A stretch of DNA of 64,000 nt from Glaucostegus cemiculus. Taxonomy: Eukaryota. A program made the translations under genes and the position numbers. The stretch lies in assembly GCA_976551045.1 (NCBI GenBank), contig CDPCPM010000233.1:9300001-9364000 (forward strand). The letters are read 5' to 3'. Of this stretch, positions 2,427 to 51,339 are shown in pieces (positions within the stretch are counted from its first letter, which is position 1; every line of letters begins with the position of its first letter). The notes under the pieces are model-generated. The model searched no databases and was not told the DNA's origin. It saw only the letters and a list, made by a program, of their open reading frames with translations.

Positions 2427-3342
2427 AGATTTATTCCAGATTATGTTAACTATGTCTAGCGGTTACCAATTCTCCTAATAATGGAAATGGTTTATTCCTT
2501 TCTCCTCTATCCAAACTTCAGAAAATGACCTGATACAACAGAGCATTATGGAGAGAAAAAGCCTCTTCTATTCTGCAGCTGCACTATGTTCCAAGCTCAG
2601 CAATATAACACCATCACACCCTGCACCATCATCATTTTCTCAAACTAGCCATCATGATAATACCAGCAGGCAAGATAGCTCATTTACACCAAATAAGTGC
2701 AAAATTCAAATAAAGAAACTGCAAATTAAATAAAGAAACTGATCAGCTTCAAAGCAAATAAATACTTTTTATTTGCTGGCAAATAGCTAGCAGCTATTTC
2801 TGAGTGCTGATAGAATGCACCAAGGCAGAAATTTGTGAGGCACTGATCATCATAGTAAAGGTGTCAACAGAAGCTAGGGATATTACAGAAAACTGGAAAT
2901 TGGTTAAGGAGTTGTAATATTCAAAATGAATGGCTGAGCAGATACAGATGATTTCGGTTTTCATACTATTTCAAATAATGGAAGTGATCACTGGGACTAA
3001 TGTTGAGGACAATCTGTATAACCATGAAAGAGCAGCAGTCAGCTTGGATTCCAAAGAGGAATGTTACATCTTACCAATCTTTTTGCTTTTTTACAGGACG
3101 TTATTTCCCAAGTCACTGGTGTAATGACTGAAAAGTGGGTCCAAACTGCCAGAAAATGTTTTTATTCAACAGAGTTGAATAAGCTGTGGGTATTCAGTGC
3201 AAACCCTGGATAATTGAAAAGAAGTGAATTTTAAACAATAGCCCAAATATTAACTTGCCCAATTCAAAATGAAAGAACAACTGAGGTGACAATCATGTTA
3301 ATGTGGAATGAAATAATCTTGCGTACGTTTCCAGGCATCTTA

Positions 3343-4397
3343 GGACTCGTCAATACCAACAGCTAAACCCCTCATCTCCAGAATCAACCTGGTGAACTTC
3401 CTCTGCACAACCTCCAAAACCAGTATCTCCTTCCTCAAGTAAGGAGACCAGAACTGCATGCAGTACTCCAGGTGCAGCCTCACCAGTACCCTGTACAGTT
3501 GCAGCATAATCTCCCTGCTCCTAAATTCAATCCCTCTAGCAACGGAAATCAACATTCCATTTGCCTTCTTGATAAGCTGTTGGACCTGCAAACCAACCTT
3601 TTGCGATTCATGCACTCCCAAGTCCTTCTGCAGAACAGCATGCTGCAATCTTTCACCATTTAAATAATAACCTGACCTTCTATTGTTCCTTCCAAAGTGG
3701 ATGACCTCACATTTACCAACATTGTACTCCATCTGCCAGACCCTTGCCCAGTCACTTAACCTAAGTATATCTCTCTGCAGACTCTCCACGTCTTCTGCAC
3801 AATTTGCTTTTCCACTCAGTTTAGTGTCACCAGCAAACTTAGATATGCTACATTTGGTCCCCTCTTCCAAATCATTGATGTTTATCGTGAACAGTTGCGG
3901 GCCCAGCACTAATCCCTGCGGCACCCCGCTCACCACTGATCGCCAAGCACAGAAACACCCATTTGTCCCAACTCTCTGCCTTCTATTGGTTAACCAATCC
4001 TCTATCCATATTAATACATTACCCTCAACTCCATGCATCCTTATCTTATGGATAATTCTTTTATGCGGCATCTTATCGAATGCCTTCTGGAAATCCAAAT
4101 ATACAACATCCACCTGCTCCTATCTATCAGCGGTGCTCATTATATTCTCAAATAACTCCAGTAAGTTTGTCAAACAGGACCCACCCTTCCTGAATCCATG
4201 CTGTGTCTGCCTGATGGAACCACTTCTATACAGATGTCTCGCTATTTCTTACTAATGACAGCTTCAAGCATTTTTCCGACTATAAACGTTAAGCTATCTG
4301 GCCTACAGTTCACTGCTTTTTGCCTACATCTATTAATAAATAGTGACATGTCATTCGCTATCTTCCAATCCTCTGGGACCTGTCCAGAGTCCAGAGC
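3343..4397 (-). mobile_element. CR1 LINE ORF2 reverse transcriptase fragment
   Basis: ORF 3340-4113: VYLDFQKAFDK, SGVPQGLVLGPQLF, KFAGDTK (mutated FADD), LEYCMQFWSPYLRK. CR1 homology continues to ~4397. Confidence 0.95.
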
Positions 4398-15473: not shown

Positions 15474-17098
15474 GGCTAGACAGGGAGGTAAGTGGAACCA
15501 CAAGGAAGAGACTCTGAAGACAACAGGACACGGGAGGAGGGAAAGAGACTGTACAAAGTCACTCAGAGGGTGAGCCTCCAAGGTTTCATCCTTATTAAGT
15601 ATTACTTTTTCATACTGCATGCAGCTTACTTAATAAATCTTTGTACTTGTACAGAAAATGTAAACCAATATGCTTGTACAGAACACCAATATACTTGTAC
15701 AGAAAATGGTTAGTAGTAGTCACAAACAAGTCTCTTGTGTTGATTTAACTTAAATTTTGAAAGTAAAACAAACTATGAATTGGCAAATCTTACACAGAAG
15801 TAGTCCTTTTGATCAAGTAGGAAGAGCTGCCAAGCCTAACCAAAGTGTAGAACTCTTGGTCTATAGCTTTGTTAGTTATGGAACTCATCCAAGTACTCTT
15901 TAAATACAGTGAAGGTTTCTGCCTCTGGGTTTGGAATTCATTCCACAAGACCACAAGACAAAGGAGCAGAAGTAGGCCATTCAGCCCATCAAGTCTGGTC
16001 TGCCACTTCATTGTGAGCTAAACTATTCCCCCATCTATCCCAAATTCCCAGCCTTTTCCACATATCCCTTGATACCCTGACTAATTAGATACCTATCAAT
16101 CTCTGCCTTAAACACCCCCAATGATTGGGACCCCACAGCTGTATGGCAACAAATTCTGTCAATCCACGACCCTCTGGCTAAAGAAATTTCTCTACATCTC
16201 TGTTCTAAATGGGTACCCCCTAATACCAAGACTATGCCCTCTTGTCCTGGACTCACCCACAATGGGAAACAACTTAGTCACATCTACTCTGTCCAGTCCT
16301 TTCAACATTCAAGATGTTTCTAGGAGGTCCACTCTCATTCTTCTGGACTCCAATGAATACAGTCCAAGAGCTGACAAACGCTCCTCATATGTCAGCCCTT
16401 TCATTCTGGGAATCATCTTTGTAAATTTTCTCTGAACCCTCTCCAACATCAGTCCATCCTTTCTAAGATAACAGGCCTAAAACTGCACACAGTATTCCAA
16501 ATGAAGTCTCACCAGTGCCCCACAGAGCCTCATCAACACATCTTTACTTTTAAGCACTATTCCCCTTCAAATGAATGCCAACGTAGCATTCGCTTTCTTT
16601 ATCGCCGAGCCAACCTGGAGGCTAGCCTTTAGGGTATCCTGCACGAGTACCCCCAAGTCCCTTTGCACTTCTGAATTTTTAATTTTTGCCCCATCTAGAT
16701 AATAAACTGCGCATTTATTTCTTCCAAAGTGTACAACCGCACATTTTTCAATATTGCATTTCATCTGCCATTTTTTTTGCCCATTCTCCTAAACTGTTCA
16801 AGTCTCTCTGCAACCTTTGTTTCTTCAACACTTCCTGCTCCTCCACCTACCTTGGTGTCATCTGCAAATTTAGCCTCAAAACCTTTTATTCCATAATCTA
16901 AATCATCGATATACAGTGTAAAGAAGCAGCCCCAACACCAACCCCTGCGGAACACCACTGGTAACTGGCAGCCAACAAAAATAGGATCCCTTTATTCCCA
17001 CCCTTTATGCCTATCAGTCAATGCTCAACTCATTCTAATATCTCTCCTATAATTCCATGGACACTCACCTTATTAAGCAGCCTCTTGCACGGCACCTT

Positions 17099-18140
17099 AT
17101 CAGAATCAGAATCCAGTTTTATTGTCACAACCATATACATACATAGTATGCATAGGAGCGAGACAGGTGCTCGTCCCATAAAATAACATAACAACCAACA
17201 GAGACACACATACACACTTGACAGAATAAACATTAAAAAACATTAAACATTAAAAGCTACGGAAGTTAAAATTAAATTAGTACGCAGATTAAAATTAAAA
17301 ATGGCTGGTAAATAAGTAAATAGTTATTAAAGTGAACGGGCTGGTGTCGGGCATTTAAAGTGCTGGTGCATTTCTGTGCACCTAGCATCTCTTAGTGTTA
17401 ACAAAGGAAGATGGAGGGAAGAGAGAGATTGCAGTTCTGATGGCTTGCGGAAAGAAGCTATTTTTCAGCCTGGTCGTTCTTGCCCTGATACATTTAAGCC
17501 TCCTCCCTGATGGCAAAATTGTGAAGAGGTGGTGGGAGGGGTGAGAAGGGTCGGCCATTATGCTTTTGGTCTTCCTCTCACAACGGTCTTTGTACATGTC
17601 TGCGAGGGATGGAAGCGAGACCACTCCGCAGCCCTAACTATCTTCTAGAGGGACTTCCGCCCAGCAGCTTCCAAACCAAACAGTGATACATTGAGTTAGG
17701 ATGCTCTCAATGGTCCCCCTATAGAAGGTTTTCATGACAGAGGGATGGGGGTACGCTTTCCTCAGTCTCCGCAGGAAGTAGAGGCGTTTCTGAGCTTTCC
17801 TCGTGAGGGCCATAATGTTAGTGGACCAGGTCAGGTCGTCGGTGATGTGCACCCCCAGGAACTTGGTGCTGTGTACTTGTTCCACAGCAGACCCGTTGAT
17901 GGTCAGCGGGGCGTGCACACGGTGACCCCTCCTAAAATCCACTATCATCTCCTTGGTTTTATCCACATTCAAGAAGAGGTTGTTGTCATGGCACCACACG
18001 GCTAGTTGTTTCACCTCCTCTCTGTAGTCCGACTCATCGTCATTCATGACAAGACCCACCACTGTCGGGTCATCGGCAAATTTAACAATGCGGTTGGAGC
18101 TGGATCTGGCCTCACAGTCGTGGGTCAACAAGGTGAACAG
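17099..18140 (-). mobile_element. Rex1/Babar-type LINE, 5'-truncated, nested in CR1
   Basis: ORFs with THDC...[42 protein letters not shown]; (ATTCTG)n tail. Nearly identical to 37398-38787. Confidence 0.92.
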
Positions 18141-18575
18141 ACCTTTTGAAGATCCTTTTGAAGATCGAAGACTTTTTGAAAATCCAAATACACAACATCC
18201 ACTGCTCCTTCCTTGTCCATCCTACTTGAGATTACCTCAAAAAATTCCATTAGGTTCATCAGGCAGGATCTTCCCTTAAGAAAACTGTGCTGACTTGGAC
18301 CTATCTTGTCATGCACCTCCAGGTATTCCATAACCTCATCTTTGAGGATCAACTCCAATAACTTTCCAATCACTGATATCAGACTAATAGGCCTGTAATT
18401 TCCCTTTTGCTGCCTCCCTCCTTTCTTAAACAGTGGAACTACATTTGTAACCTTCCAGTCCTCCAGAACCATGCCAGAGTCTATTAATTCCTGAAAAATC
18501 ATCTCCAATGCCTCCACAATCTCAAAGCCTCCACAATCTCAAAGCCTCCTCCTTCAGAGTCTGAGGGTGCACTTC

Positions 18576-18983
18576 TGTCATGATTCTCAGTACTGGCCCT
18601 TGATTTGGTTCCTTAGATGCCTCATTATACAGCACATGGAATCAATGCTGGACTGATTGCATAATGACACACACCTGAGCCCCATCAGGGGCCTAGCATA
18701 TGTAACTGGGTTTCTCTCACACTAGTTGTCAGAGGATTGGTCAATCTTTGGGTATACTTTGGTTCCTAGCTGCTTAGAGTGGGCTACTCCAGAGCAGTCC
18801 TGCATTCTCTATTTCTGCTTGAAGATTCAGTTTGTGTTGGGATTACTACTCAGATCTCTGAGGCAAGATTCCTTCCAGTGTTGCCTGTGTCTGGTCCTAA
18901 GGAAGTATCCTGACTCCAGTTTTGTTACCAGTGTGCTGCATTTGCGTTCTCTGTGAGCTTGCTCTTCAATCAACATTGTGACA
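18576..18983. mobile_element. Solo LTR (408 bp) with 5-bp TSD ACTTC
   Basis: TGTCA...TGACA ends; ACTTC at 18571-18575 and 18984-18988. Removing it restores the CR1 motif DKSPGPDEVHP. Confidence 0.85.
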
Positions 18984-19289
18984 ACTTCATCTGGTCCAGG
19001 AGACTTATCTGTCCTTAGTCCATTCAGCTTCCTGAGCACCTTCTCTCTAGTAATCTGACTATACTCAATTCTATTCCCTGAGACCCCTGACTATCAGGAA
19101 TATTGCTGATGTCTTCCACAGTGAAGACTGATGCAAAATACTCATTTAGTTCCTCTGCCATCTCTTTGTTACCCATTATAATTTCTCCAGCATCATTTTC
19201 AATTGGTCCTATATCTATTATTCCTGACCCTCTGGGTAGGGTATTTGCACTTGGTGAGTTGTTAACCCCCAACAATATTGATTTTTTTG

Positions 19290-26782: not shown

Positions 26783-28260
26783 TAACAAATGTTCAGCAGA
26801 GTCTTAATAGCTCCTGAAAACAAGTGCAGGGATAGAGAAGTGTGATTAACCATACTCGCAATTAGTGCTGCCTGCTCACTTATGTTTACTGCATGCAGCC
26901 TACATTAATTGTACTGTTCATTGGCTTATCCTCTGAGCAGGAGACCCTATTGTGATACTGTATTGCCAGCAGATCACAGCTCTTTGCAACAGATACTGGC
27001 AGTTATTCTGGAACTCGTTCTAATCAGATACTGAAGATTAGAACAAGGAAGGGAACCCAATGATGCACCAGCTATGCTTTATTGAAATGTGAATGCCTTT
27101 ACGTGTTCTGCATCTGGCAGCAATAACTTGTTCAAAAGCTTCAAAGTCACAACAACGTCTTCAGCATTTAACCACATCACTCGCTGCAGCTTGAAACGGC
27201 CAGAAACAGAAAATACTTGTAGCCTGGTAGCAACAGCTGAAAGGAATCAACCAGTAATTAACCTTTATCTGTTTGCTGATTCTGTTAAATGACAATGGTG
27301 AGCTACCTTCTCACTACTGAACAATCTTGTGAATGTAAACAAATCTCCAAAGTAGAAAAGCAAAGCTGTAAATTGATCACAATCTGCCAACTCTATTGGG
27401 TATTCATCGCACAAATACTAATATCCCTACTGATATGTTGTCAACAATTATATGCCACCTGAAAACATGATTCCACCAAACCCTTGGCTCCTTCCTTCCG
27501 ACAACAAAAATATTGTGTTTACAGTTGTCTGTCAGTTTCACCTCAAAGTCAATAGGTATAATTTCACAACGCTAAAGTGAAAGAGTAGCTTTAATCTGTC
27601 TGTCAGGTAACAGGTAATCAACTGATATTGTTCAATATGAGGTTTGAAAGCAGTTTGAAAGTCATTTAACAACCACTCAAGTTAAACAATGAATTGGACA
27701 GCAAACACAAAGAAAGATTTGGCCACAATTTACATCTGAAGATTAACACAAATGATTTTTAAGGGTTTCTGTGCAATATTAAGGAATCAAAAGAAAATCT
27801 GTCAGAATAAAGTCATAGTGGGCTGTGCCTTCAGGGTGCCAAGGTTGCACAGCATGCAGCAGACTATCATCTATCTTGACAGCTGCTCAGCTGAGTACAG
27901 CCATGGTCCTCCAGATTCAGTGAGCAGAGCATTGTTTAAGTATATTAATGGTTTGCTAGATGTCTTGGGTGGCAGAATTGTACACATGGTGGCCATCAAA
28001 AATCTAAGCCATGACATTAGTGAGTAGCCCTTGTTCCCCAGAAGTTGTTTGGCCGTGGCAGCTTGAACCCAAATGGTACAGTGGACTGCTACAGAATGAG
28101 GGCATTGTATTTGCTGCCAGAACAGTCAGCATGACCTGAGGGATTTGCTACCTGTGTTCACACTTGAATTGGAAGGTGAAGGAATAGAATTGCTCGCCAT
28201 TGTTGTACTAAGCAGGGTTACAATGCAGTGACTTTAAAGAAAAGTGTGTTTACTCACTAG

Positions 28261-29303
28261 TGTTACGAAGTAGCTTACTATAGACAAATATCCCTTTAAT
28301 ATGGGACATTGTGTGTGTGTGTGCAACGTATTACGTCAACAGAAGATAAAACTAACGTGATGATGTCATTACAAGAAAGGAAAAGATAGGAGAGAGAGAC
28401 AGACAGACGGAGAGAGAGAAGAAGGAGAGATGGCAGCCTGTTTTGTTTCTGTCGATGGATGAAGGACAGTAACTGTGTTTGTCACTAAAATCTGTGGATG
28501 GATTTCTGGTGTAGTCCAGTGGAGTTCACTTTGTCGGTAACCTGTAGAAGGACACAGGTGTTTGCATGGACAACCACATTTTGGATGCTCTTCAGAGTGG
28601 CAGATACCGTGGAACAAAGTGACGGAATTCACTTTGCTGCTAACCTGTAGAAGAACACAGGTATTTGCATGGACAGTCACGATCAAGGAGTTTTCAGGGT
28701 GAGAAAGTCACTACCAAGTAAGCCCTGAAGTGTCGTTTGAGTTTCGAGCGGAACATTCAGATTTCGTGATTCCTCTCTAATCTCTCTCTATATCTATGTT
28801 TTGTCTTCGGTGGACAGTGCTTGTGAAGAAGCCTTTATTCGTGTCATCTTACGGCTTATTGAACTGAACCTTAAGAACTAATTCCTGGACTTGGAGTTTA
28901 GGAACTTGCTGCACACACACAACGAGTAGTTTTGGGGTTATAATTTAAGATTCTAATATTTTATTGTGTACTAATATACTAACTTTTTATTCTTAATTTA
29001 CGTATTATCGGATGTAGTTATTAATAAAGTAGTTTTAACACTGAAGTATGAATTGGTGTGCTTCTTTTTTTGCTGGTTTCGTAACAAAATTCTACATTGG
29101 CCTTCATCCATTGACAGAAACAAAACAGGCTGCCATCTCTCCTTCTTCTCTCTCTCCGTCTGTCTGTCTCTCTCTCCTATCTTTTCCTTTCTTGTAATGA
29201 CGTCATCACGTTAGTTTTATCTTCTGTTGACGTAATACGTTGCACACACACACAATGTCCCATATTAAAGGGATATTTGTCTATAGTAAGCTACTTCGTA
29301 ACA
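28261..29303. mobile_element. LTR-derived fold-back element: full LTR (28261-29086), 14-bp spacer, inverted copy of the LTR 5' end (29101-29303)
   Basis: LTR ends TGTTACGAA...TTCGTAACA; AATAAA at 29023; internal ~57-bp direct repeats at 28521 and 28624. 29101-29303 is the reverse complement of 28261-28465. CTAG at 28257-28260 and 29304-29307. Confidence 0.85.
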
Positions 29304-32300
29304 CTAGCACTCTGGACTATGATGAAATCTGAAGTCCCATAAAAGCCATATATTTACACTGCTTGTTACTCTGTGTGAAGTGAGAGTGAAAACAGTGTGC
29401 ACCTCCCTCAGAATTTAAATTTTCACTGACCTGCATTATGGACATTATGGACCTAAATGTGGACAGAAAAATGTGAGCTGTTATAAATAATTCCACCTCC
29501 ATGCCAGCAAGAACGGAATTCAAGGAAGTTTGTGACCATGCCGCCCTCACCCAGCTCTGAGGTTGGGGTTATGGCCGCAGCAAGTGTTAAATTTCAGTGT
29601 GGACAATGTTATTGGAGTGTAGACACTTCGTATCCTTGATGTGGTTCAAGCAGGAGATTTGATCCCTCAAAACCCTGTGTCCAGGAGTAACAAGTCTCTG
29701 CAGAAGCCAGGGGAAAGCCCAGAGCAATTGCCTCATGACTTTGTCAACCTTGAAAAATTCCAGAGAGAATAACACTCGCCCACTTGTAGAATCAGCCAGT
29801 AGAAATCAATCAATAATTAACTGACAAATATTTGATGATACCTTTAATTATGACAGGATACAGGAGTCTTGTTCAGCTGCATAATAGGTGTTCGTGTGCA
29901 CAAGATTAGAATAAGACATTAGCCAGACTGATGAATTCCAAAATCGTGTTCTGATGTTATCAGTGTTTTGAGTTGATTGATGTCAAGATGCTGCCTACTC
30001 TGCACACTTCTGGCAGGGGTTCCTTTACATGTACTAATGTCCTCACACAAAGATAGATTCCAGTTTGACAGAAGCCACAAAGGTCACAGACATCCCTTTG
30101 GGACAGAACTGGCTTCCATGGCACCAACATGATGGATGCTAGTGCTTCTAGGTCTTTGCCTGGGCTCTTTGGGACATTTGTAGGACCTTAGGAACCTAGA
30201 GAATTTAAAAATTCAATTACATTCTTTCTGATCAGCTCTAGTTTTCAAAGTTAAAATATACATTTACATGAAAATTCTCAAATATAATTGCATCAAACTC
30301 CACTTCCACCCTCTCAAAACTGACAATGTTGTTATTCTTAATTACCTCTGTTAGCTATTCATTCCAAGAATTTAGCACCAGCTGTGTGAAATAGCATTAC
30401 CTTCCCTCTTATAATGCTAATAACACTGTCTGCAACATACAAGGTTGTAAACTTTGGCCTTGTGTCCTCTGAACATTGTGATTGCCTCACATTAAGATAT
30501 AACAATTATTATGCAAGGGAAGAATAGCATTTAAATCTAGCAATGGTAACTATGGTATCTACATTATTTTCTTCATTTACAGCAGTTTCAGATTAGGGAT
30601 GTAAGATTCCCAAAATTCAACACATACCTTTCTAAACAGTAATAGGTCAGTACAGACCTATTACTGATACAAGTTACTGTAACTTGGACATAGGGATTTA
30701 TGGCAATTTTAATGAATATACACATCTAATTTAAAGATGTGCATCCTCCTTTATTCCCCCTATTCAATGGTTATCTCTGGCTCATTACATTCTGTCTTTA
30801 ACTAGCAAGGGGAGGAATTGCTTCTTAAATCCATGCTGCCAATAGCTCTGCAGGTTCAGTGTCTGGAAGACTGTGAGCTTGCACTAGTAAAGACATTTTC
30901 TCAGAATTTTTCTCTCAATTTCCTAAGAGACATTCCAAGTATGTCTACACGGTACTGCTGTAATTGGAACTGTGGTGATACCATGTTGCAAACATCTGCT
31001 CCCCCAGTCCAAAGATGTAACATGTTTTAATTTGAAGCTAATTTAAAATAGATTTATAAATGAAACCTTTAAACATCTTCAAAGGAGCTGCAGAATTGGT
31101 AGCTGAGCAGTAATGTTTGTCGTTGATATCCCAATTAAATCACAGTGTGCACATTAATAGACAGCTAAGGAACATTGTGTATCCTTCAGGATATTTTGAC
31201 ATTTGAAATTATACATTAAGCAGTGACTGATGACTGGTAAACAAGTAGGTCTCTGACAGAAACTTATTAAGTGGTCATGCCTGACCTTCCTCATTTAGCT
31301 GCAATGTACTGAGTGCCAGGCCTCTTTCCACACACTGCAGGACTTTTAATCATTGTTAATGCCAACTAAAGGTGCATTGGTTAGTATTTCTGCTAATTAT
31401 TGTTTATTTCTAAATAAAATACTACAAATTAATCCTTGCTGTTTTACCTCCCAGTTTGCATCTGAAATGTGGATACAACACTTTCCAGCCAAAGCACAAT
31501 TTTCATGTGAATCTTAATCATAGAACCCAGAGCTCCAGCTGAATGGTGCTAGGCATGAATATATATTACCTGAAGACAAATTACATAGTTATAAATTTAT
31601 CTGCTATTTTCCTCTGTCCTTTGGATAATTGCGAGTCTGACATGAAACATAGGTGGTTGGGCAGAACAAATTTGAGTGTACATTAAATGGATCCATAGCT
31701 ACCACCAGGGAAAGTTGAAAGCAGGTTCAGCACAGGAAAATTCCACAGGAGCATGTGGATTTTTAGCTTTAACCACTTTTGTTCCTTGTGCTTCAAACAT
31801 TTTGTCCACAGCTCAAAACTCAGGCTTGCTTTCACTCGAATGCTTCCAATGGATGCCATTTAGAAATAGTGTGACAGACCCTCTGAAAGTGAGTGTCCTG
31901 CCCAATTTCTCACTGTGCGACAAAGAGCTGCCAAAGGTTTTGCACTGGTAGTTTACAGAGTTAATGCAAAAGAAAACAAATTAAAAACCCTGCCAGCTCC
32001 ATCGGATATGCCTTATACTTAGATACTAGTGAGCCAGATTTAAAATAAATGTTACATTATTTCTAAATGGAGCTTAATTGAATAACTGCTTACTTAAAAA
32101 AGAAAGTACCTTTCCAAGGAGCTTAGACCGTTGCTTTTATGCAGGATGGAATTGTAAAACACTTGTACCTCACCTTGAGCTCAAGGTACATTCCCAGGAA
32201 TGAGTGTGTTAGTGGAATCGGCACTAAAAGGGATCATTAGAGCATTATATATGTATTACTGACAGCAAGCACCTTGTTATTGGGAATGCACAACCAACAG

Positions 32301-37397: not shown

Positions 37398-38787
37398 TCA
37401 GAATCAGAATCAGTTTTATTGTCACAACCATATACATACATAGTATGCATAGGAGCGAGATACCGTCCTCCTCAGGTGCTCGTCCCATAAAAAAATAACA
37501 TAACAACCAACAGAGAGACACATACACACTTGGCAGAATACACAGTACAAAACATTACACATTAGAAGCTATGGAGATTGAAATTAAATTATTACGCAGA
37601 TTAAATTAAAAATGGCCAGTAAATAAATAAATAGTTCTTAAAGTGAACGGGCTAGTGTCGGGCATTTAAAGTGCTGGTGCATTTCTGTGCACCTAGCATC
37701 TCTTAGTGTTAACAAAGGAAGATGGAGGGATGAGAGAGTTTGCAGTTCTGATGGCTTGCGGAAAGAAGCTATTGTTCAGCCTGGATGTTCTTGCCCTGAT
37801 ACATTTAAGCCTCCTCCCTGATGGCAAAATTGTGAAGAGGTGGTGGGAGGGGTGAGAAGGGTCGGCCATTATGCTTTTGGTCTTCCTCACACAACGGTCT
37901 TTGTATATGTCTGCGAGGGATGGAAGCGAGACACCTATGATCCACTCCGCAGCCCTAACTATCTTCTGGAGGGACTTCCGCCCAGCAGCTGAGCAGCTTC
38001 CAAACCAAACAGTGATACATTGAGTTAGGATGCTCTCAATGGTCCCCCTGAAGAAGGATTTCATGACTGAGGGATGTGGGTACGCTTTCCTCAGTCTCCG
38101 CAGGAAGTAGCGGCGTTTCTGAGCCTTCTTCGTGAGGGCCGTAATGTTAATGGACCAGGTCAGGTCGTCGGTGATGTGCACCCCCAGGAACTTGGTGCTG
38201 CGTACTTGTTCCACAACAGACCCGTTGATGGTCAGTGGGGCGTGCACACGATGACCCCTCCTAAAATCCACTATCATCTCCTTGGTTTTATCCACATTCA
38301 AGGAGAGGTTGTTGTCATGGCACCACACGGCTAGTTGGTTCACCTCCTCTCTGTAGTCAGACTCATCGTCATTCGTGACAAGACCCACCACTGTCGTGTC
38401 ATCGGCAAATTTAACAATGCGGTTGGAGCTGAATCTGGCCTCACAGTCGTGGGTCAACAAGGTGAACAGGAGCGGACTGAGCACACAACCCTGAGGGGAG
38501 CTAGTGCTCAGTGTGATGGTGCTTGAGGTGTTTTCACCAATTTTGACTGACTGCGGCCTGCAAATTAGAAAATCCAGTATCCAGTTGCAGAGAGGAGAGT
38601 TAATGCCCAGAGCGCTCAACTTCCTGATAAGCTGTTGCGGGATGATGGTATTGAAAGCGGAGCTAAAGTCGATGAATAGCAGTCGGCAGTATGAGTCCTT
38701 CTTCTCTAAGTGATGTAGTGTGGAGTGCATGGCAGAGGAGACTGCATCATCGGTGGACCTGTTTGCCCGATAAGCATACTGATGATG
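37398..38787 (-). mobile_element. Young Rex1/Babar-type LINE, 5'-truncated, RT reading frame uninterrupted
   Basis: 368-aa ORF: [42 protein letters not shown]; (ATTCTG)n tail. Confidence 0.95.
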
Positions 38788-39039
38788 ATTTCCAGACACA
38801 GTTGATGATTATAACAGTGATGCCTTTCATAGGACCACAAAATTTTATTCCTTATGTAGCATCTGTAGCCTCTTCATTGCTGCTCATTTTTAAGGAAAAT
38901 AACAAGATAGAACTATCAACAGAACATCTTTTATCAAAAGTAGTAAATACTCATTCATTTCCATAGCTGAAATTATATAATTAATTAATTGACAATGGAA
39001 ATATATATGTACAACTTTAAATTTGACCTAATATAATTT

Positions 39040-48931: not shown

Positions 48932-51270
48932 ACAAGATCACAAGATCACAAGACAAGGGAGCAGAAGTAGGCCATTCAGCCCTTTGAGTCTGCTCCATGA
49001 GAAAAGAAAACATATCTATCCCCAATTTCCAGCCTTATCCCCATATCCCTTGATACCTTGATTAATTAGGTACCTATCCAACTCCCCTTTAAATGCCCCC
49101 ACTGACTGAGCCTCTACAGCTGTATGTGGCAGAGAATTCCACAACTCCACCACCCTCTGACTAAAGTAATTTCTCCTCATCTCTGTTTTAAACTGGTTCC
49201 CTCTGATTCTAAGTCTGTGCCCTCTAGTCTTGGACTTACCCACCAAGGGAAACAGCCTTTCCACATCCACTCTATCCATTCCCTTCAACATTCTAAATAC
49301 TTCTATGAGGTCCCCCCTCATTCTTCTGTACTCCAACGAGTACAGTCCAAGAGCCAATAAACGCTCATCATAGGTAAGCCCTTTCATACCAGGAATCATC
49401 CTTGTAAACCTCCTCTGGACCCTCTCCAACATCAGCACATCCCTTCTAAGGTGTGGGGCCCAAAACTGCACACAGTATTCCAAATGAGGACGTACCAGTG
49501 CTCCATAGAGCCTCATCATCACTTCCCTACTTCTATACACTATACCTCGCGATATGAACGCCAACATAGCATTCGCTTTCTTTATCACCGATCCGACCTG
49601 GTGGTTGACTTTTAGGGTGTCCTGCACGAGTACCCCCAAGTCCCTTTGTACTTCCGTACTTCCAATTTTCTCCCCATCTAGATAATAATCTGCCCGTTCA
49701 TTTCTTTTGCCAAAGTGTACTACAGCACATTTGTCAACATTGAATTTCATCTGCCATTTCTTTGCCCATTCACTTAACCTATCCAAGTCTCTCTGCAGCC
49801 TTCCTGCCTCTTCTATACTCCCTGCTCCACCGCCAATCTTGGTGTCATCCGCAAACTTAGCTACAAAACCATTTACTCCATCATCCAAATCGTTAATATA
49901 TAAAGTGAAAAGTAGCGGGCCCAACACCAACCCTTGCGGGACACCACTAGTAACTGGTCGCCATCTAGAACAGGATCCCTTTATTCCTACCCGTTGCTTT
50001 CTGCCTACCAGCCAATGCTCGACCCATTTTAACATCTTTCCTGTAATTCCATGCGTACTCATCTTATTAATCAACCTCTGATGCGGCACCTTGTCGAAGG
50101 CCTTTTGAAAGTCTAAATACACAACGTCCACTGCCTCTCCCTTATCCACCCTACCTGAGATTTCCTCAAAAAACTCCAATAGGTTGGTCAGGCAAGATCT
50201 TCCCTTTATGAAACCATGCTGGCTTGGACCTATTCTGTCTTGAAACACCAGGTATTCCGTAACCTCATCCTTGAGGATCGATTCCAGTATCTTTCCCACT
50301 ACTGACGTCAAACTAATTGGTCTGTAATTACCTTTATACTGCCTCCCACCTTTCTTATACAGTGGAACTACGTTCGCTACTCTCCAGTCCTCCGGAACCA
50401 TGCCGGAGTCCATTGACTCTTGGAAAATAATCACTAATGCCTCTACAATCTCTAAAGCCACCTCCTTCAGAAACCGAGGGTGCACCTCATGACTTATCTG
50501 TCTTTAATCCACTTAGCTTCCTTAGCACCTTCTCCCTAGTAATCTCAACTGTACTCAGTTCAATCCCCTGGAACCCCTGTCTATCTGGTATATTGCTGGT
50601 ATCTTCCACAGTGAAGACCGATGCAAAATACTTATTTAGTTCCTCTGCCATCTCTGTATCTTCTATTATACCCACACCATTTTCAATTGGTCCTATATCA
50701 ACCCTTGTCTCTCTTTTACACCTCATGTATTTAAAAAAAACTTTTAGTATCTGTTTGAATGTTATCTGCCAATTTCCTTTCGTAATTCATCTTTTCTTCC
50801 CTAATGACCTTCTTAGCTTCTTTCTGCAGGTTTTTAAATGTTTCCCAATACTCAGTTTCCCCACTTATTTTTGCTACCTTGTAGGCCCTCCCTTTTGCTC
50901 TTATCTTAGCCTTAACCTCTCTCGTTACCCACATATGTGCCTTTTTTCCATTCAGAACTTTCTTTTTTCTTGGAACGTACCTCTCCTGCACCTTCCTTAT
51001 TTCTTGTAAAAACTTTATCCATTTCTGCTCCACCGTCCCACCTGCTAGCTTACTCTTCCAATTGATTTGAGACAGTACCTCTCTCATACTGCTGTAGTTT
51101 CCCTTGTTCCATTGCCATATATGTGCACCAGTTATGAGCCTCTCCTTTTCAAATTTGACTCCAAACTCAATCATATTGTGATCACTGGTTCCTAATGGTT
51201 CCATTACTTTTAGCTTCCTAATCAGCTCTGGTTCATTGCACAGTACCCAATCCAAAATGGCTGATCCCCT
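48932..51270 (-). mobile_element. Young 5'-truncated CR1 LINE
   Basis: The 489-aa ORF 49016-50485 carries an intact RT (YLDFQKAFDKV, GVPQG, KFADDTK). Upstream ORF2 is broken by an 11-nt deletion near 50490 and an A-run frameshift near 50733. (TGATCTTG)n tail. Confidence 0.97.
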
Positions 51271-51339
51271 TAGTACAGCAAAATTCCACAGAGCACCTGA
51301 TACGAACATTAGCAAATAAAAACTGATAGTATACTACAG

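Follow-up and report, generated by a model that had tools for sequence, protein, structure and literature searches.

The DNA transposons of the Ginger1 group have TGTNR termini, inverted termini of 40-270 bp and 4-bp target site duplications (TSDs), and it has been speculated that their terminal inverted repeats (TIRs) derive from two opposite long terminal repeats (LTRs), by a chain of events that was called unclear (Bao et al. 2010, PMC2836005). Inverted structures are also described for Ty1 and SISYPHUS, whose autointegration yields inversion circles (PMC7197481), and for HIV-1, where proviruses occur with inversions or asymmetric LTRs, the internal inversions amounting to 2/78 by the percentages given (PMC9278108). 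Furthermore, LTR elements take up host RNA by template switches that are guided by microsimilarity (Tan et al. 2016, PMC5131818). We describe here a 1,043-bp unit, consisting of an LTR and an inverted copy of ~205 bp of its own U3 end with CTAG on both sides, in a 64-kb stretch of the 2.85-Gb genome of Glaucostegus cemiculus (contig CDPCPM010000233.1; G000:C233:9300001-9364000), hereafter the window. The unit ends in U3 on both sides, and it probably arose when the plus strand of a Ty3/Gypsy element ran off at U5 and jumped to further templates on the same element, the product then being inserted, likely by the integrase.

The inverted ends of this unit arise in one insertion, whereas the route considered in the Ginger1 paper takes two separate insertions (PMC2836005). 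With Ginger1 the unit has in common its TGTTA termini, TIRs of ~205 bp and a CTAG TSD. Unlike Ginger1, it holds no integrase-like transposase between the TIRs, there being no open reading frame (ORF) of 120 aa within the 1,043 bp; a CCGG or CCGT/ACGG target is found in 0/55 TSDs of sister units; and no sign of re-amplification or excision was seen, though excision footprints were not sought. Miniature inverted-repeat transposable elements, abbreviated MITEs, are defined by uniform amplified copies, and terminal-repeat retrotransposons in miniature, or TRIMs, by a direct LTR pair, a primer binding site (PBS) and a polypurine tract. The unit is like a MITE in its TIR-like ends, TSD, shortness and lack of coding sequence, and unlike one in that no single unit recurs across the genome in large numbers of near-identical copies; it is like a TRIM in being short, non-coding, derived from an LTR and flanked by a TSD, and unlike one in its inverted termini, its PBS cut after the first base and its lack of a polypurine tract. 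It also differs from a solo LTR, for the TSD does not lie directly on both LTR ends (CTAG on the left, AAAT on the right). Autointegration uses trimmed CA ends, whereas AAAT(T) is retained at the U5 end here and the unit lies in a chromosome, flanked by a TSD; the circles and the HIV-1 cases resemble the unit in being by-products with inverted parts or misplaced strong-stop transfer. The HIV-1 proviruses keep direct LTRs or carry rare internal inversions (PMC9278108), unlike the window unit. The retrocopies described for LTR-mediated retroposition lie between parts of one LTR element (PMC5131818), whereas here there is a jump from the U5 run-off end and the termini are inverted; a likeness lies in the sister units, which hold rRNA, tRNA and mRNA-like 3' ends.

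The two copies of CTAG, recognised from the sequence and from the empty site in runs X3, X4 and X10, lie at 28257..28260 and 29304..29307. Between them a complete 826-bp LTR (U3-R-U5, TG...CA; 28261..29086, plus strand), assigned from its sequence and the domains of its parent to a Gmr1-like Ty3/Gypsy family, is followed by AAAT-T (29087..29091, plus strand), the bases from LTR to PBS and the first PBS base, as judged from the continuation at 3,124 LTR ends; by 15 nt that match exactly the internal pol region of the parent (29091..29105, minus strand); and by the inverted copy of LTR positions 1-205 (29101..29303, minus strand). TGTTACGAA begins at 28261, and TTCGTAACA ends at 29086 and again at 29303. 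Comparison of the 203-bp arm with the 205 bp at 28261-28465 gives two CpG transitions and one GT unit, that is, 2 substitutions in 203 sites, and the inverted symmetry ends directly outside the flanking CTAG. These arms are the strongest inverted repeat of the whole window and fold in silico as a ~200-bp stem. The LTR carries an AATAAA poly(A) signal (29023..29028, plus strand), and sister junctions that copy the tail suggest that its RNA would be cleaved ~15-20 nt downstream. There is no coding region. A sequence-only reading of the locus had already recognised the 826-bp LTR, its AATAAA at 29023, the inverted ~205-bp arm with three differences and the CTAG brackets outside which symmetry stops, with CTAG to the left of the LTR and AAAT to its right, and all of these were confirmed.

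The unit was inserted as one piece. Contigs from three other organisms, belonging to three studies (X3, X4 and X10), join 28254 to 29302, and in two of the three the joint has long flanks to either side; the fourth of the four runs compared (X1) had sparse cover and showed no joint at the site. The skip of 1,047 bp is 1,043 + 4 (one CTAG), so that the site before insertion had one CTAG and no bases were lost, and we read the relatives' empty sites as the pre-insertion state. Together with the TSDs of the sister units, this upholds the earlier proposal that the unit integrated as a whole by two U3 ends. It also makes it scarcely credible that the unit is an assembly artefact from a fold-back read: the empty site agrees to the base, CpG decay separates the arms, the template of the junction lies in a distant part of the parent and hundreds of sisters have TSDs. 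In favour of an artefact counts only that the shallow raw contigs (X1 and X2, one sample) do not cover 29076-29099 or the right flank, which at such depth says little.

The order at the junction is LTR, AAAT, T, CTACATTGG, CCTTC and then U3, and this junction was found once in the 2.85-Gb genome. Positions 29091-29105 are an exact minus-strand match to the parent's internal region between integrase and reverse transcriptase (RT), at 4295-4309 of L104, a full-length copy used purely as a ruler for internal positions; the CTACATTGG core is present in 6/10 parent copies searched, some of the ten carrying deletions. The first jump has 1 nt of microhomology (T, common with the U5 end) and the second 5 nt (CCTTC, common with U3 at position 205). 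The 12-letter match observed for the 14-letter junction piece was reached in 3/3,000 shuffles. No further stretch of that internal region was found within the window, nor was the junction insert found in the 1 kb of flanking DNA searched on either side. On these matches, the parent element can supply all 14 bp between LTR and arm by two template jumps, AAATT at 29087-29091 being, we infer, the untrimmed U5 run-off end of the plus strand. The 14-bp spacer thus stands where the sequence-only reading placed it and is no longer unexplained, as AAATT and the internal pol piece template it; likewise, template switching just past the LTR stands, and a simple fold-back of the LTR does not, the 14 nt of internal pol having been copied first. 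For the spacer, the TGTAGAA sites of the LTR itself (a 7-nt match, at 289 and 392) were considered as the target of a jump and set aside in favour of the 15-nt internal match.

The same junction bears on the caveat of the earlier reading, a local inverted duplication that carried CTAG along, taken here to have followed a normal solo LTR insertion. CTAG is indeed palindromic, and yet the account is highly improbable. The AAATT and 14 nt of internal pol are foreign to a solo LTR and to the rest of the window, so that a local duplication cannot supply the junction; the flanks are joined at the empty site without loss; and 48/55 four-base TSDs of sister units are non-palindromic (7/55 are palindromic).

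The parent family is represented by 12,011 exact genome-wide occurrences of the LTR's terminal 16 letters. Of the LTR ends, 3,124 continue into AAATTGGGGGCT, so that AAATT does begin the parent's PBS region, a point that the earlier reading had put up for checking, and a polypurine tract precedes 3,078 LTR starts. Full-length copies have direct TG..CA LTRs, 5.1-5.9 kb apart, with PBS and polypurine tract, and the window LTR is ~94% identical to both LTRs of L104. The domain order of L104 is a SCAN-containing gag (SCAN-like capsid domain, PF02023, E 7e-12), then H2C2, rve, the integrase C-terminal domain, RVT_1 and RNase H. Integrase ahead of RT is the defining order of Gmr1, and by this order and by SCAN we class the parent as a Gmr1-like Ty3/Gypsy element. 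SCAN occurs in over half of Gmr elements (PMC4131045). Compared with such a parent, which has direct LTRs, PBS, polypurine tract, a SCAN gag and integrase before RT-RNase H, the window insert has inverted termini, both of them U3, and neither PBS, polypurine tract nor coding region. The PBS starts four bases (AAAT) past the LTR end and is presumably of the tRNA-Pro type, as read also from copies that hold more tRNA sequence. In L101, L120, L214 and L220 additional tRNA sequence prolongs the PBS, reaching up to ~20 nt beyond its 18 nt, and the same prolongation occurs inverted in L132, L133, L159, L165, L275 and L280; these copies may be read as plus strands that went past the usual stop into the primer tRNA, a stop that would be placed near modified base 37. 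The LTR contains two direct repeats of 57 bp, separated by 103 bp (28521..28680, plus strand), which are common to other copies. An internal deletion (L104 3457-4248, through the integrase region) is common to many copies (L245, L247, L249, L253, L294 and L301), which would make these a widespread non-autonomous subfamily.

The window insert is one of a recurrent class. Genome-wide, 363 LTR ends continue AAATT followed by a base other than G (H) and 507 continue AAAT followed by a base other than T (V), and we sampled them in contig order, taking the first 91 and the first 72, respectively. In the AAATT+H sample, 56/91 are followed by element sequence in inverted orientation (51 after a lone LTR and 5 after a 3' LTR), 14/91 are PBS variants and 21/91 are other; in the AAAT+V sample the inverted joins number 30/72, where nine of the first 30 matches are one amplified locus with the same flanks and were scored as not inverted. 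Scaled up, the class comprises ~430 junctions (340-530), a lower bound because exact 16-letter ends alone were counted, and a few units contain two such junctions; against ~3,100 full-type copies and ~5,000 solo LTRs, the latter obtained by subtraction, this is roughly 4-5% of insertions. The part past the U5 end measures 73 to 2,650 bp in 60 units and 4.9 kb in L294. Among 64 distinct lone-LTR units with both ends, 56 have exact 4- or 5-bp TSDs, 2 have a one-base mismatch and 6 have none. In an initial junction sample 19/22 loci with both ends had exact TSDs; its query favoured AAATTCT, and it is therefore left out of the frequencies. As part of the best explanation of these counts, it is quite likely that the same accident has happened hundreds of times independently.

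Several loci stand beside this class. Where a full-length copy keeps an untrimmed U5 end and is capped by an inverted U3, the TSD is exact in two copies, has one mismatch in another and is absent from one more; L245 and L248 are such copies, with AAATT kept at U5 and a TSD. L253, L254, L139 and other loci with polypurine tract, LTR and AAAT(T) keep AAATT and then enter unrelated DNA with no matching TSD, and these are possible one-ended integrations. L123, L218, L225 and L281/L282 have two LTRs with the untrimmed U5 end, short internal bridges and exact TSDs. One LTR with an AAAT junction and the same flanks was met 11 times in the sample, on C1, C3 and C24 (L171-L176, L179, L180, L182, L183 and L244), to all appearances an amplified composite or segmental repeat.

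The sequences copied at the sister junctions indicate what the templates may have been. At 34 LTR ends the sequence continues into a run of seven or more T; in 14 of the 30 examined it goes on into the LTR's reverse complement at a point 15-20 nt past AATAAA, and a further 6 enter the first three poly(A)-site bases and then switch template. A T run joined to the complement of the poly(A) site is a copied poly(A) tail, so that the template was RNA. In L278 (1215-1656) the T run and the poly(A)-site bases of the LTR are followed by ~440 bp of 28S rRNA, and in L274 (1513-1760; G000:C102, near 9478200) the T run is followed by a whole tRNA-Glu(CTC) with CCA and then by the first minus-strand bases, which makes it likely that a non-cognate tRNA primed that element and was copied end to end. 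Other sister junctions join plus strands that had entered the primer tRNA. In insert-free AAAT+V junctions, microhomology of at least 1 nt occurs in 15/21 (null ~0.3, p 1e-4). The poly(A) tail, 28S rRNA and tRNA inserts point to RT template jumps by a plus strand that had run off at U5. Among side observations, L273, L276 and L285 have, behind 1512 in junction orientation, a T run and then non-element sequence that shows, after 13-18 nt, a hexamer resembling a poly(A) signal, L273 holding ~540 bp between inverted LTRs with the TSD CATA; the inserts of these three are likely captured host mRNA 3' ends. In L082 the LTR is followed by the complement of another tRNA's 3' part, for which ARAGORN and Rfam gave no call and which we take to resemble tRNA-Ile.

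These inserts also weigh on the alternative that the U3 ends of two separate molecules were integrated at one site and that host end joining fused the inner ends, with templated inserts, pairing an untrimmed U5 end with a truncated partner. Such an event predicts the same TSD and the same empty site, and short microhomologies with templated inserts are typical of polymerase-theta joining. Full-length copies ending in AAATT are found, either capped by U3 with a TSD (L245, L248) or running into unrelated DNA without one (L253), and in L022, L003, L077 and L012 the arms are as divergent as unrelated copies. It is nevertheless unlikely: the inserts are poly(A) tail, rRNA, CCA-tRNA and internal pol, the contents of a particle and not flanking DNA, the insert in the window being absent from 1 kb of flank on each side, and most left partners are a lone LTR that ends exactly at AAAT(T), with no resection.

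Arm divergence likewise counts for the template jumps. Pooled over units, the arms differ by 1.5% (417/27,987 sites), against ~5% between an arm and the LTRs of other units, and the arm is closer to its own LTR than to the median other in 59/60 units; the pooled figure is like that for the two LTRs of normal copies, which differ by 0.2-10.8%, with a median of ~1.6% (10 copies). By this measure most units were made from one source and a few from two.

The sequence-only reading had further proposed a MITE-like mobile derivative, and a non-autonomous family spreading as DNA through its inverted termini would account for the recurrence of certain breakpoints: one junction near U3 position 204 is found in 7 copies, and another near 207 in 4 sampled. 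TGTNR TIR-like termini with 4-bp TSDs resemble Ginger1 (PMC2836005), and a clade of such units is not rejected by approximately unbiased (AU) tests. This proposal did not survive, however, and such a family is very unlikely. The window junction is single-copy and breakpoints vary. Units with the same junction do not group together (6 changes on the tree for 6 rows, and 4 for 4) and, at mean distances of 6.1% and 5.0% against a median of 5.8% for random sets, are no closer than chance; the closest pair among 60 units is 2.1% apart. L139 has the position-204 junction after a 3' LTR of the full-length type, and several distinct junction spellings cluster at U3 201-207, as expected of a hotspot. 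Nothing in the copy number of junctions or in the distances among the 60 units spoke for a re-amplifying MITE family. With 9/88 branches strongly supported, the tree of 98 LTRs is star-like and therefore neither shows nor rejects single origins.

We thus favour the run-off of the plus strand at U5 followed by template jumps, for which the following steps may be envisaged. A plus strand primed at the polypurine tract would copy U3-R-U5 and stop at AAAT(T), presumably because the tRNA primer had already been removed; such a strand, the primer being gone, would lack the PBS for normal second strand transfer. RT would then extend the 3' end on plus-sense templates through short microhomologies, in the window unit first on the internal pol site and then on U3, on to position 1. 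The other strand would be filled in, and a DNA with two U3 ends would be accepted by the integrase. In vitro, RTs are able to start synthesis from terminal pairings of 2 nt (PMC3035444). We might guess that the overhang of 4-5 nt makes U5 a poor integrase substrate and so favours two-U3 products, a thought fed by the full-length copies with untrimmed U5 ends. As it has neither PBS nor polypurine tract, the unit is predicted to be a dead end, and the window insert itself is most likely inert.

A number of points weigh against this account. The same in vitro work describes a clamp that needs 2 nt with C or G (PMC3035444), which the U5 ends here do not have, and most junctions share one T. Microhomology is absent from 4/31 insert-free AAATT+H and 6/21 AAAT+V junctions, and a figure of 32/37 for microhomology is inflated, the search pattern having fixed T and the best of seven templates having been taken. 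Many sister junctions carry inserts without an explained source; 21/91 and 42/72 sampled ends are not inverted joins and are explained in part; and 8/64 units have no exact TSD. AU tests do not reject a single origin for units with the same breakpoint (p 0.19 and 0.37). The fossil junctions fit a join made before integration or host end joining after it, and the completion of the second strand is something that we infer.

It would be a larger claim that jumping from the U5 run-off end is a frequent one-step route to integrase-competent TIR elements and that some recurrent-junction units, such as the 7 copies near 204, have already moved; we regard this as distinctly doubtful. Since the Gmr1-type integrase lies ahead of RT, an inverted 5' part of sufficient length would bring integrase, but not RT, to lie between inverted LTRs, and this, if it occurred, would supply the step that is missing between Gypsy and Ginger-like DNA transposons. 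None of the long sisters that were mapped has an entire integrase region enclosed by inverted LTRs; in L294, inverted LTRs flank 5.7 kb, with the TSD CCTG, and part of its integrase region is missing.

Elsewhere in the window, decayed copies of long interspersed nuclear elements with RVT_1 matches lie at 3340-4119, 16000-19200, 37500-38800 and 49000-51300, and no host gene was recognised among the 15 window ORFs scanned. The literature that we searched, to which most subscription journals and the Repbase reports did not belong, yielded no description of two-U3 insertions as a class. A guppy endogenous retrovirus paper mentions an inverted LTR in passing (PMC5210030), and a review of RT recombination in LTR elements holds nothing on two-U3 joins in the part available (PMC6894440). 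The class-wide count and the anatomy of the junctions are new here.

If our account is correct, two-U3 products make up a few percent of the insertions of this family, and from their frequency it would follow that the integrase readily takes two like ends in vivo and that pairing of U3 with U5 is not required. The junctions would then be a fossil record of plus-strand stops (after AAAT or AAATT), of the polyadenylation site and of the RNAs in the particle, and the two-U3 route would also be one that captures host RNA. It would further provide a concrete one-step origin of inverted termini from LTRs, the step left open for Ginger1. For the family itself, hundreds of long LTR inverted repeats could, we predict, yield double-stranded RNA directed against it.

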